A stretch of 44,234 nucleotides of DNA, taken from sequence record NC_047812.1; one strand, 5' to 3'. The position numbers were made by a program, and so were the translations under genes. The DNA comes from Escherichia phage vB_EcoS_CEB_EC3a. Shown here piece by piece: positions 1 to 44,234 of the stretch. The notes below the pieces were generated by a model. The model worked only from the letters and a program-made list of their open reading frames with translations. It did no database searches and had not been told where the DNA came from. Numbering within the stretch: position 1 is the first letter of the stretch; each line of letters opens with the position of its first letter.

Positions 1-89
1 CTAAGCTGACACGTAACGCCTGTAGCGCGATGTAAGCCAATGCCTATCGTTACGCTAGTTACGCGAAGCTACGCCCAGACTTACACTAT

Positions 90-345
90 AAGTGCCTAAT
101 ATATATATATATCTTCTTTCTATTATTATTATTATTATTAATATTATTGTATGTAAGTCATGTAACAGGGGTCCTGGCGATATCTATATGTTTTTTCCTA
201 TCAGTTATAGCCGAGGCTATAATTTAGGGTATGGTGGGGGTGTTTTGGGGATGTTTGCATCGTTACACGCACGACACGCTACTCACATTGAGCTATAGCT
301 GGGCTGGCATGCCATTTCACGTAACGACCCCCAAAAGTTACCAAG
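90..345. promoter_or_regulatory. AT-rich block (copy A) with (TA)n, (TTA)n and ACGTAAC/GTTACG repeats; homologous to 26480-26760
   Basis: Shared ACATTGAGCTATAGCTGGGCTG (287-307 vs 26677-26698), shared ACGTAACGA, TCATGTAAC and TTATTATTATTA runs; no convincing ORF. Confidence 0.55.
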
Positions 346-413
346 AATTACACTTGACTACACGTGTAAGTCGGGATATTATGGACTCAACTTAAACGAG
401 AGGAGTGATAGAG

Positions 414-893
414 ATGAGCGAGAAGGTAACATTAGGCCAAGTGATTCGTGAGATGGTAAAAGCAGCGCTTAAGTCTGAGGATAAGCAGATCAGCGTGACA
501 CTCAACAAGATTGAGAGCCTTATTGGTGCCGAAGATGGTGGCCTACACAAGCTTAAGAGCTCATACATCTATAATACAACGGCTCGCATGCCTGAATTGA
601 GAGATGCAGGACTGAAGGCAACTCACCATTATGATGAAGAAAGGGGTATTAATGAATTTACTGGGAGTGAGATACTTGGAGACAAGAAGCTGGTTATCAA
701 ACTGATTCCAGGCTCGGCAAACATTGGAATCAGGAAGAAGACCAACGACGCGATCAAGAATGAGGCAATCACTGAGTTCAAGGCGAAGATTTCTAAGGTG
801 ATGCCAGACCTTTCTGAGTATGAGGGTGAAGCGCTTGCGGCAGCGATGAAGGCCATTAAAGATTACCGATTAATTATTGAGGAGATTAAATAA
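414..893 (+). CDS. hypothetical protein
   Basis: ORF with AGGAG RBS 8 nt upstream of ATG 414; first gene after regulatory block. Confidence 0.6.
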   Translation: MSEKVTLGQVIREMVKAALKSEDKQISVTLNKIESLIGAEDGGLHKLKSSYIYNTTARMPELRDAGLKATHHYDEERGINEFTGSEILGDKKLVIKLIPGSANIGIRKKTNDAIKNEAITEFKAKISKVMPDLSEYEGEALAAAMKAIKDYRLIIEEIK

Positions 894-1414
894 TGTTTGA
901 CTTTAAAGACAAACTAACAAGCGAGCAGATCATCAATATTGCACGTGCTGATGGTTATCCACTATTGCGAGTTGCAATCAATGCCAATGGATATCGTAGC
1001 TAAAATAAGTTCTGGGGTCAGCCTGATGCGTCAGAAGTATACAAAGATGAGGCGCTTGGGGTTCTGATTAAGCTAATCATGAAAATGGCAAGGAACGGCA
1101 AAGGAGTTGTCGGCATCAGATATCTATATGAAGGTGCTCGCAAGCTGAAACCATTTGCTGGGCGCGATGGAATGATGCTAGTGATCAAGGACAAGCTAAT
1201 TCCAGAGCTCGATAAGATGAATGTTACCTGTCTAATTGGAGATAAGGTTTACGTCAACCCTGCCTTGACGGATTTAAGCTGGCAACCAAACTTCAAAACT
1301 TACGAAGGTGAGCATGCTAGTAGACTACCATACCACTTGCGGTACAGTGAGGGTGAAGTGGAGATGGCTGTCGAGTTCTACCGGAAAGCTAAATCACTCC
1401 TGAACGGTGAATAG
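893..1414 (+). pseudogene. degenerate inverted paralog of gene 40729-42312: N-terminal fragment 893-1003 and frame-shifted C-terminal fragment 1079-1414, central ~430 codons missing
   Basis: MFDFKDKLTSEQ...LRVAINANGYR matches N-terminus and NGKGVVGIRYLYEGARKLKPF...CLIGDKVYVNP matches C-terminus of the 527-aa protein; fragments in different frames. Confidence 0.55.
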
Positions 1415-1454
1415 CACGGATTGCTAAACAATGGATCGGGTAGTCAGCTATAAT
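1412..1454 (+). promoter_or_regulatory. palindrome-promoter module (TAGCACGGATTGCTAAA, -10 TATAAT 1449-1454)
   Basis: Inverted repeat TAGCA-N5-TGCTA, 22 bp to -10, leader TTACCACATCGA; TAG 1412-1414 is stop of upstream ORF. Confidence 0.6.
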
Positions 1455-25544: not shown

Positions 25545-25606
25545 GTTTCGTTTCGATGTGGTAATAGTATCGAATCCTTGCGATCAGTGTTTAGCAATTA
25601 GTGCTA
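25545..25606 (-). promoter_or_regulatory. palindrome-promoter module, minus strand (TAGCACTAATTGCTAAA; -10 TACTAT; leader TTACCACATCGAAACGAAAC)
   Basis: Reverse complement of 25545-25612 matches module; palindrome TAG is stop of Rha-like gene. Confidence 0.6.
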
Positions 25607-40728: not shown

Positions 40729-42312
40729 TTACCCCAGCAGTCTAGGATTAATGTAAACTTTATCACCAATCAGGCACGTGTAGTTTTTCTCATCAAGCAT
40801 TGGCAGCAAGTGATCTTTAATCTTCGTCATTACTCCAGCCTGAGCCTCGAATGGCTTAACCTTACGAGCCGCTTCATACAATGAACGAATGCCAACTACG
40901 CCCTTACCGTTCTTACCTTGCTTGATCAGAATATCAATCAGCTTATTCATCTCGGCATTGTCGCCAGCGTGACCAGCGGCGTTAGCAGATGACAAATAAG
41001 TCTTGCTAAGTTCCTGGAACATAATTACAGCCTCTTGCATGGTTTCGAGTTCAATCTCTCTGGACTTCTGCGGACTCCCGCCATTTGGGTTAAACCAGTT
41101 ACGCACAGTGTGAAGGACCGCTGCAATCCTGATAGCCTGCTTATCAAACTTACCAAGCGCACCGCGAAGCATTGTGTGAGAATACTTACCGCCGTCAGCG
41201 AGGTGAGGCTCCATTTCCTGACGTGCTCGGTTGAGGTACTTCATCGCTGAGTTGCTTACTGTCAGCTTAACATCTTGCTCATTCATTATTTCGTGAACCA
41301 AGCGGAAGTAGTCAGCCTTCAGGCCACCATCAATAGGTTCGTAAGTTGAGTCTCCATTCTCATCAACGAATACACGTTCGCCGAGGAATGACTTCTCGCG
41401 CACAAGAAGGAAACGTTCCGATACACCGATACCACGCGCGCCAGCATTCATGATTGCATTGATTGTTTCATCCTGCGCAATTACAGAGATGCAACCCATA
41501 GCAACGAAACTCATGTTGTTTTCTGCGTTCGCACGCGCGATAGACACGTTACCCGCATCCCATGCTTTCAGTACAAGTTCGCTGTTCGTTTTCTTGGATC
41601 CGTCACCGTAGGTCATGCCAAGCAGCGAGTTCACGCTCGTCGCCTCATCCGAGATGACTGCGAAGTTGCCCTGGCGGTTGTTGATTCGAGCAAGGCCTTC
41701 AGGCGTGGTATCTGATACTGGGAATACGATATCGCACAACTTCTCCAGCTTTTCTTCCAGCTCCTCTTTCTCCTCAAAAAGTGAAGCCATCTCTGACGGG
41801 GATTTTTCCTGCTTCATCTCTTTCGATAATGTAGATAGCTTAGCCATAATCTTTTTGCGCTCACGCTTGCGCACTTCATTAAGTCGCTCAGTCTCAGTAA
41901 TCATTGGAGCAATCGAAAGTGAGTTAATGGCCGACTTACCAGTTGATGGCGGTTGGCTTGTCACGACGTAAAGAGATGTTGGCTGTTGGGTGCCATGATA
42001 CTCGACAGTAAAGCGTCCAAGCATTGCGGCAGAAATACACCCAAGGAAGTGCATATAAGCTGAAGACTCTGGAAACTGAACTGAACGAGCGATGTTAGAT
42101 GACAATTTACCAACAACATCAATATCATTTCCTAGTGAGATTACGGGGTATTTGTCATTTGCAGCATCAATCTCCACTGGTGCTTTCCAGAATGATTGAG
42201 ACTGGCGATAGCCATTGGCATTAATGGCGACTCGCAGTGGCGGGAGGTTGTCTGCGGCAGCAATTGCCATAACCTGTTCAACAGATAGTTTATCTTCGTT
42301 GAAATCAAACAT
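40729..42312 (-). CDS. large conserved hypothetical protein with P-loop-like motif (possibly DUF3987-like ATPase)
   Basis: 527 aa; PPSTGKSA Walker-A-like segment; GGAGAG RBS; has degenerate paralog at 893-1414. Confidence 0.6.
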   Translation of the reverse strand: MFDFNEDKLSVEQVMAIAAADNLPPLRVAINANGYRQSQSFWKAPVEIDAANDKYPVISLGNDIDVVGKLSSNIARSVQFPESSAYMHFLGCISAAMLGRFTVEYHGTQQPTSLYVVTSQPPSTGKSAINSLSIAPMITETERLNEVRKRERKKIMAKLSTLSKEMKQEKSPSEMASLFEEKEELEEKLEKLCDIVFPVSDTTPEGLARINNRQGNFAVISDEATSVNSLLGMTYGDGSKKTNSELVLKAWDAGNVSIARANAENNMSFVAMGCISVIAQDETINAIMNAGARGIGVSERFLLVREKSFLGERVFVDENGDSTYEPIDGGLKADYFRLVHEIMNEQDVKLTVSNSAMKYLNRARQEMEPHLADGGKYSHTMLRGALGKFDKQAIRIAAVLHTVRNWFNPNGGSPQKSREIELETMQEAVIMFQELSKTYLSSANAAGHAGDNAEMNKLIDILIKQGKNGKGVVGIRSLYEAARKVKPFEAQAGVMTKIKDHLLPMLDEKNYTCLIGDKVYINPRLLG

Positions 42313-43978: not shown

Positions 43979-44004
43979 ATCTATCTCCTCGTTTTGATGA
44001 GTTA

Positions 44005-44049
44005 ACTATATCCTCCATGACCCACAATGTCTTTAGCAAAAAGTGCTAT
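44005..44049 (-). promoter_or_regulatory. palindrome-promoter module, minus strand (TAGCACTTTTTGCTAAAG, TATAGT, leader TTAACTCATCAAAACGAGGAG)
   Basis: Reverse complement matches module family. Confidence 0.6.
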
Positions 44050-44057
44050 TCGTTAGA

Positions 44058-44152
44058 TTTATTGATTGTTGCATATATTGCAATGATTATCATGACTATT
44101 GCACATATGGCAATATTGCTTCAGATGCAATGATGTTTTTGATTGTTGCGAA
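44058..44152. repeat. cluster of short TTGCA/TGCAAT and GATTGTTGC repeats upstream of rightmost minus-strand module
   Basis: GATTGTTGC at 44064-44072 and 44141-44149; ATTGCA-type motifs repeated 4-5 times. Confidence 0.45.
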
Positions 44153-44234
44153 AAGTGAAATGAAGTTGGGAGTGAGTGAATGAAAGATGGATGGACTACC
44201 ATACAAGTTGATTTTGATTCCCGCTGAGCCATTT

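Follow-up and report, generated by a model that had tools for sequence, protein, structure and literature searches.

Sequence comparison identifies a nonsense-interrupted early gene of Escherichia phage vB_EcoS_CEB_EC3a as a motor-less paralogue of the phage's DUF3987 helicase

What is the short locus at positions 893-1414 of Escherichia phage vB_EcoS_CEB_EC3a (EC3a; NC_047812.1), whose two open reading frames (ORFs) resemble the two ends of a much larger protein of the same phage? We analyzed the record over its full length of 44,234 nucleotides (nt), hereafter the window, which is the complete genome of EC3a in an arbitrary linearisation. From the letters alone, the locus had been described (hereafter the sequence-only reading) as a degenerate, inverted and internally deleted copy of the gene for a 527-amino-acid (aa) protein, identified here as a helicase, with 35 N-terminal and about 60 C-terminal residues in common. 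Using BLASTP, we observed that the 36-aa ORF matches helicase residues 1-36 (25/36 identical, E 3e-14) and that the 111-aa ORF matches helicase residues 463-525 (41/63 identical, E 1e-26). The pairwise alignment of the two loci thus upheld both terminal similarities as significant. When family profiles were compared with each other (hhalign), codons 54-127 of the locus aligned with helicase residues 454-527 with a probability of 99.6% (E 2.8e-24). Residues 1-68 of P0049, an intact relative of the small protein, aligned with helicase residues 1-73 (E 6e-17), and the helicase itself matched the profile of the small protein's family, phrog_7327 (E 1.6e-54). With profiles, the homology covers ~45-50 N-terminal and ~74-89 C-terminal residues, which is longer at both ends than first described, while the loss of the central codons (~400) and the inverted orientation of the small locus relative to the helicase gene were described correctly. 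Taken together, these alignments show the small locus to be a paralogue of the phage's own helicase, and we hold this identity and the history of the locus given below with high confidence.

The next question is whether the two ORFs are separate relics or parts of one gene. Translation of 893-1414 gave one 173-codon frame, whose sole interruption is the TAA at 1001-1003. Since the starts at 893 and 1079 are separated by 186 nt, they lie in a common frame, and the earlier statement that the C-terminal piece is in a different frame has to be corrected. The read-through translation was 93.6% identical to P0049, which matches phrog_7327 over positions 1-173 of 179 profile positions (E 4.4e-75). 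At the same position, close relatives possess an uninterrupted ORF of 174-175 aa. These results show that 893-1414 is the EC3a copy of phrog_7327, a conserved early gene (~174 aa) that occurs in many T1-like phages; we call it the mini gene. Members of phrog_7327 in Drexlerviridae (AugustePiccard bas01_0066 QXV76197, PsgS01F WYA87411, BEK6 QGH76910, e4/1c and CJ19) share with EC3a the position after the DUF7174 gene and the same three-part build, namely an N module, a winged-helix module and a tail. Identity to the EC3a gene is 62-94% for Braunvirinae-type members and 37-47% for the Rogunavirus and Nouzillyvirus types. The copies named are intact (173-187 aa), whereas the EC3a copy has the TAA at codon 37, lacks the uninterrupted ORF of ~164-187 aa and is annotated as a pair of distinct hypothetical proteins, gp02 and gp03. 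The description as a degenerate paralog was therefore right about the paralogy; what had been taken for a two-frame relic is a conserved family member with one point nonsense mutation. In agreement with the sequence-only reading, the tail (~45 aa) is novel, and neither the helicase nor any other part of the window gave a match to it. An origin of the tail by borrowing from another gene of the window was ruled out on the same ground.

We then considered how far this family extends and whether it is maintained. In a collection of 5.8 billion proteins, phrog_7327, annotated as 'hypothetical proteins', forms at least 120 clusters at 90% identity, almost all of which lack a Pfam domain and are 173-177 aa long. 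When 1.84 billion representatives were searched with a profile, only 44 proteins were recovered, all of them T1-like. They comprise ~10 full-length subfamilies (164-185 aa), many fragments and the T1-like helicases, so that the family is narrow and confined to T1-like phages. A full-length copy was present in 107 of 50,697 phage records; ~300 further T1-like records match through their helicase only, and T1 itself is without the mini gene. By codon comparison of 20 sequences, the ratio of nonsynonymous to synonymous substitution rates (dN/dS) was ~0.2 overall, with 0.17 in the N module, 0.19 in the winged helix and 0.30 in the tail helix; the family is therefore under purifying selection, all three parts being constrained as protein.

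Which parts of the parent did the mini gene keep? The test of the 527-aa protein for DUF3987 that the sequence-only reading had proposed was positive (PF13148, Pfam E 1e-40, residues 81-430), and the protein has an MCM-like AAA+ fold. Proteins of this type are known from phages and mobile elements as DUF3987 or superfamily-6 (SF6) MCM-like replicative helicases (Kazlauskas et al. 2016, PMC4889955). One DUF3987 protein, AgaPH, was shown to be a 5'-3' helicase, binds its primase and carries an N-terminal PriCT domain, a domain linked with primases (PMC11724360). In the EC3a helicase family, the Walker residues G125, K126 and E223 are invariant, and S127 and D222 nearly so. The AlphaFold2 (AF2) model of the helicase was confident (predicted local distance difference test, pLDDT, 89.7; predicted template modelling score, pTM, 0.87) and consists of a three-helix N module (11-41), a coil, the AAA+ core and a C-terminal helix-helix-helix-hairpin (451-521). 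The stretches homologous to the mini protein end at helicase residue ~50 and restart at ~454, both outside the DUF3987 core (81-430). In the model, the deletion ends at domain borders, helices 11-41 being retained and the copy restarting at helix 451-468. Since the borders of the deletion are thus domain borders, the mini protein retains two whole domains and loses the whole motor, and the missing part of the small gene is exactly the DUF3987 core. What is kept is the N-terminal three-helix module with its invariant LRVAINANGYR motif and the C-terminal winged helix, which is basic in both proteins (pI 9.5-9.9; mini protein 9.9). As compared with the DUF3987/SF6 helicases, the mini protein has both end parts of the phage's own helicase, the helical module at the N terminus and the winged helix at the C terminus, whereas the core with Walker A and B is wholly missing and a tail helix, which the helicase lacks, has been added. 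No Walker A/B-bearing DUF3987 core was found in the mini protein with Pfam (E <= 10) or within the alignment limits. Without Walker motifs or an oligomerising core, the mini protein cannot be a helicase and cannot unwind DNA.

The two copies share little at the DNA level: identity is 64% over 169 nt in the winged-helix part, and a second stretch of 31 nt reaches 87%. From these values we conclude that the duplication is old and that the copies are unlikely to be still recombining; a recent duplication or gene conversion is thereby ruled out. As the window is written, 39 kb separate the two loci, which are in inverted orientation; the sequence-only reading had taken this as a bracket of ~40 kb and as a possible mark of a past inversion or illegitimate recombination that left copies at both ends of the segment. 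By contrast, the end of the window joined to its start aligned unbroken to phage PsgS01F (2541 nt, 93.4%), and across this junction the distance from helicase to mini gene in EC3a is 2,814 bp. The two genes are divergent, 2.4-2.8 kb apart, and flank one intergenic region in PsgS01F, AugustePiccard, phiKP26 and an uncultured contig. This layout is common to Braunvirinae, Rogunavirinae and uncultured contigs, and a 40-kb separation was seen in no relative inspected. Relatives thus have the two ends of the window joined, which makes the two genes divergent neighbours without any need for an inversion; the bracket is an artefact of linearisation. With the PsgS01F alignment refuting it and the copies only ~64-87% identical over short DNA stretches, a large inversion is hardly credible. 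Overall, the helicase and the mini gene head two divergent early operons, in an arrangement that is conserved across Drexlerviridae subfamilies.

Within the rightward early operon, which opens with the DUF7174 gene behind the sigma-70-like promoter at 354-382 (Table 1), the mini gene is the second gene and is translationally coupled to the first: the DUF7174 stop overlaps the mini start in TAATG (891-895). The same overlap was found at eight loci of relatives and in all the subfamilies inspected. The two genes co-occur, and DUF7174 is present in 132 phage records. The PsgS01F homologue of DUF7174 is annotated with 480 nt. Searches of NCBIfam, PADLOC and PDB sequences gave no family assignment for the DUF7174 protein.

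Table 1. Positions in the window of the mini gene, its parts, its parent and the neighbouring elements.
Feature	Position	Strand	Basis or remark
Start of the divergent intergenic control region	1..353	.	Continues across the window end into ~44,000-44,234; ends contiguous
Sigma-70-like promoter, TTGACT-17-TATTAT	354..382	+	Consensus scan, 10/12 matches; pattern match only; before the DUF7174/mini pair
DUF7174 gene, 159 aa from ATG 414 (alternative start GTG 405)	414..893	+	Pfam PF23796, E 5e-46; phrog_4841
Mini-helicase gene (phrog_7327)	893..1414	+	173-codon frame with one internal TAA; N module, winged-helix module and tail
N-module ORF, 36 aa (RefSeq gp02, YP_009789297)	893..1003	+	BLASTP to helicase residues 1-36
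TAA nonsense codon (TCA, Ser, in relatives)	1001..1003	+	Codon comparison across 20 relatives
Winged-helix module, mini codons 54-127 = helicase residues 454-527	1052..1273	+	hhalign, secondary structure, charge
111-aa ORF (RefSeq gp03, YP_009789298)	1079..1414	+	Most of the winged helix plus tail
Family-specific tail, codons 128-173, ending in the conserved helix EEVExAxEFYRKAKSLLNGE	1274..1411	+	Alignments
Palindromic motif TAGCACGRATTGCTAAAC, one of 12 copies	1412..1429	+	Its TAG is the mini-gene stop; followed by -10-like TATAAT
527-aa DUF3987 (SF6, MCM-like) helicase, parent paralogue	40729..42312	-	N module 42178-42312, AAA+ core central, winged helix 40732-40953

How did the EC3a copy come to be interrupted, and does it still work? 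Over 207 nt (850-1056), EC3a is identical to the intact P0049 allele (Logan contig SRR30334944_287) except for one C->A, which turns Ser codon 37 from TCA into TAA. Since these 207 nt are otherwise identical, the nonsense event is either very recent or an error. A sequencing or assembly error, with an intact gene in the real phage, would fit a difference of a single nucleotide and a nonsense allele that is on record for one contig only. However, EC3a was published as a T1-like phage sequenced with Illumina (HiSeq 2x100 reads), and its assembly was checked manually (PMC5727068). The Illumina origin of the record makes a sequencing error less likely, consensus substitution errors being rare, and an independent phage carries the same change (ETEP102, see below). 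We therefore consider an error improbable. A point-nonsense state such as that of the EC3a locus is ordinary.

A plain pseudogene, in which the nonsense mutation abolished the function and neither fragment is active, is a serious alternative that comes close to an even chance. The in-frame TAA falls at codon 37 of 173. A suppressor transfer RNA (tRNA) reading TAA was ruled out, the window encoding only tRNA-Arg(TCT). By sequence inspection, no Shine-Dalgarno sequence was present within 15 nt of ATG 1079 or ATG 1085. In addition, EC3a grows lytically (PMC5727068), little of the gene is left in its nearest named relatives (19 codons in Rtp; 94 aa without the winged helix in ACG-M12) and the copy of IME542 shows multi-hit decay. 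On the other side, the mutation is very recent. The premature stop, as compared with the intact orthologues, is accompanied by no second lesion in the 136 downstream codons, and its background is that of the intact allele. A strong GGAG ribosome-binding site lies 8 nt upstream of ATG 893, and with this site and the coupling to DUF7174 the 36-aa peptide should be made. Judging from these signals, the 36-aa N-module peptide is the only product of the locus in EC3a that is certainly translatable.

Expression of the C-terminal part is less clear. A G->T at 1080, found in EC3a only, changes codon 63 from Arg to Met and creates ATG 1079; this change may be coincidental or compensatory. Since ATG 1079 and ATG 1085 lack a Shine-Dalgarno sequence, expression of the 111-aa ORF is uncertain, and its product is possible through reinitiation at such an ATG. 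We also considered Met-65/66 as a conserved internal start that would give a second product family-wide. This residue is invariant in Braunvirinae-type members, but the proposal was ruled out as the Met is missing in Rogunavirus-type members.

The state of the gene in other phages bears directly on this question. Damaged or reduced mini genes were carried by 8 of the ~21 isolate lineages inspected: EC3a (TAA at codon 37), ETEP102 (OR979723; TAA at the homologous codon, codon 38), Rao1 (TAG at codons 12 and 44), DTL (TAG at codon 141), a 44,219-bp vB_EcoS group (TGA at codon 141), IME542 (several lesions), ACG-M12 (626-910; a 94-aa form with the N module fused to the tail, without the winged helix) and Rtp (1064-1383; the 19-codon remnant rtp2). 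The mini gene is therefore dispensable. Among the metagenome loci, 2 of ~11 were also broken, and further N fragments, C fragments and internal-deletion forms were found in public protein sets.

Could the gene be split and still functional, with the N-module peptide and/or the winged-helix-plus-tail protein made separately and the breaks tolerated or selected, in line with what the sequence-only reading had proposed for the 111-aa ORF? The same TCA->TAA change occurs at the homologous codon of EC3a and ETEP102, whose mini genes have only 47% identity. In Rao1, the 109 codons that remain behind the stops at codons 12 and 44 are intact and are annotated as gp02. Public N fragments (36-80 aa) and C fragments (119-124 aa) are numerous, and the EC3a-specific G->T provides ATG 1079. 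However, with all pairs of events taken into account, the shared nonsense codon was not significant (P ~0.01 per pair, ~0.24 for at least one coincidence among 8 events), and several of the frameshifts sit at a conserved TGGGG run that could be a mutational or sequencing hot spot. Moreover, the internal Met is not conserved in Rogunavirus-type members, the 111-aa ORF has no ribosome-binding site, and other lineages lose the winged helix instead. Overall, we consider a split but functional gene rather unlikely. The other breaks cluster directly behind the N module and directly before the tail helix. In Rtp, the remnant rtp2 is followed by rtp3, which begins with a lipoprotein-type signal peptide (MKRLMKCMTIIAAMVALTGC).

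We next examined what a paralogue with this build could do. In the account that we favour, the mini gene would descend, by a route that we infer from the two present-day genes, from an ancient copy of the MCM-like DUF3987 replicative helicase of the phage itself. The whole AAA+ motor (helicase residues ~50-453) would have been lost, and an extension of the frame beyond the helicase stop would have given the new tail helix. The resulting protein could still occupy what the end domains of the helicase bind, be it DNA, primase or a host factor. As a non-catalytic mimic, it may tune or divert the loading of the helicase, possibly together with DUF7174. Because phages often lose the gene, such a mimic would help under some conditions only. 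Taken as a whole, from paralogue identity and origin through the present state to the mimic role, this account seems to us moderately probable. Its mechanistic part, the mimic or modulator, is the likeliest and most economical of the roles considered, but is put forward tentatively, at less than even odds.

Several observations are consistent with such a role. The sequence-only reading had suggested a truncated regulatory or dominant-negative derivative, and, with the end domains kept and the motor lost, this would still be the best functional guess. Basic winged helices contact DNA or loading partners in MCM, ORC and Cdc6 proteins; the C-terminal winged-helix domains of these proteins have no detectable sequence relationship to the phage domain. 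Truncated antagonists with a domain in common with a replication or transposition protein are already known, as in papillomavirus E8^E2 / E2-TR and the Tn5 inhibitor protein, so that the architecture has a precedent. Like them, the mini protein keeps the binding domain(s) of its parent without the active, catalytic part, as is expected of truncated competitor derivatives, and could compete for sites or partners. Those antagonists are alternative-start or splice products of the gene for their full-length counterpart, whereas the mini gene is a separate, diverged paralogue in another operon. By this analogy, competition with the helicase, or its inhibition, is the predicted role of the mini protein. 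In the literature searched, we found no report of a mini protein that competes with or inhibits the helicase. Frequent loss and the absence from T1 argue against an essential initiator or loader.

Some results weigh against the proposed mimic. If the mini winged helix had to share the target of the near-invariant helicase winged helix, stronger conservation would be expected. The mini gene evolves much faster than the helicase: phages with 93-100% identity at the helicase termini differ by 30-60% in their mini genes. The N module is joined to the tail without a winged helix in ACG-M12 and in two further proteins (P0251 and P0259), so that no single module is indispensable. The mini protein had no match in Pfam (even at E <= 10), NCBIfam, PADLOC or PDB sequences. 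Its AF2 model was poor (pLDDT 48), showing matching secondary-structure elements and a long C-terminal helix (153-170); the winged-helix fold is accordingly a reading from homology and from the order H-H-H-beta-beta in this low-scoring model. A fold search with the model was dropped, as a pLDDT of 48 is too low. Finally, the EC3a copy of the gene may simply be dead.

The fast evolution and patchy presence of the gene would also suit an anti-defence or host-takeover decoy, in which the mimic shows the surface domains of the helicase to a host or satellite factor that senses or blocks the helicase. The mini gene sits among small, fast-evolving early genes, diverges much faster than the helicase, is patchily distributed and has been lost repeatedly in isolates, the last two being typical features of accessory genes for counter-defence. 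However, neither PADLOC nor the other searches gave a match, and the literature searched holds no experimental link. We regard a decoy, which would be useful only in hosts with the factor concerned, as unlikely.

A further proposal is that the mimic harms the phage under some conditions, for example as a protein recognised by a host defence or satellite, or as a brake on replication, and that phages silence or trim the gene in preferred ways. It leans on the TCA->TAA shared by EC3a and ETEP102, on the clustering of the breaks and on the N-plus-tail forms, which suggest it; we consider it speculative and of low probability. If true, there would be selection for particular truncated products and not random decay, and the family would be a natural series of separation-of-function alleles for the recruitment or sensing of an MCM-like phage helicase.

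Returning to the favoured account of an old paralogue acting as a mimic, we asked whether the mini genes have one origin. In a neighbour-joining tree of the winged-helix module, mini genes nest beside the helicases of their carrier phages, and one mini subtype (P0242/P0244) groups with helicases. Since this tree has only ~70 residues, it cannot decide between one and several origins.

These results have consequences for annotation and for the study of the helicase. EC3a gp02 and gp03 should be merged into one nonsense-interrupted gene, and ~100 'hypothetical proteins' of phrog_7327 can be described as motor-less paralogues of a DUF3987 helicase. The family is already in databases, and its relationship to the helicase is not mentioned in the literature searched, which covered DUF3987 in Drexlerviridae, EC3a, Rtp and Rogue1. 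In its members, the two end domains of an MCM-like phage helicase that is still poorly understood are set apart in a small soluble protein, and the natural truncated variants of the family offer a cheap route to what these domains bind (origin DNA, primase or host factor). The family could thereby tell whether T1-like phages regulate or protect the loading of their helicase.

Besides the genes themselves, we observed repeated DNA motifs around the locus. The divergent intergenic region (1-404 and ~44,000-44,234) contains an AT-rich tract (95-150) with (TA)n and (TTA)n. On either side of the tract are CACGTAACG/CGTTACG and TGTAAGTC/GACTTACA repeats, which occur in both orientations, and of the five TGTAAGTC copies in the genome, three lie within this region. 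Being next to both helicase-related genes, the region is a candidate operator set or replication origin.

The end of the mini gene overlaps an 18-nt palindromic motif (TAGCACGAATTGCTAAAC), which is present in 12 copies in the window against 0.08 expected. The copies are at 1412, 2369, 3089, 3264, 3831, 7244, 28019, 32079 and 36582 on the + strand and at 25589, 26348 and 43201 on the - strand. They are always co-oriented with the local genes, and the TAG of the motif is often the stop codon of the upstream gene. The motif is followed at ~19-22 nt downstream by a TATAGT/TATAAT box and by a conserved leader whose last letters are GAGAGGA. Relatives share the motif, phages without the mini gene among them, and it looks like a family-wide promoter or operator for a putative dimeric factor. 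The winged helix of the mini protein as its binder was ruled out by this occurrence in phages without the gene. Over the last ~46 codons of the mini gene (1274-1411; homologous stretches L001-L038), the proportion of synonymous differences (pS) was 0.32-0.42 vs 0.52-0.77 over the remainder of the gene, which suggests extra constraint at the DNA level or recent exchange beside the promoter motif.

Finally, some of the records used for comparison showed oddities. The records of 'Pseudomonas phage PsgS01F' (PP134917) and of the E. coli phage UALMA_PCEc3 (PQ314493) are equally long (44,679 bp) and encode the same mini protein. T1-like coliphage sequence was also found in records labelled Campylobacter phage A110b, A119 and A120 and Streptococcus phage MBBL140. 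The host labels of PsgS01F and of the Campylobacter and Streptococcus phage records look doubtful.

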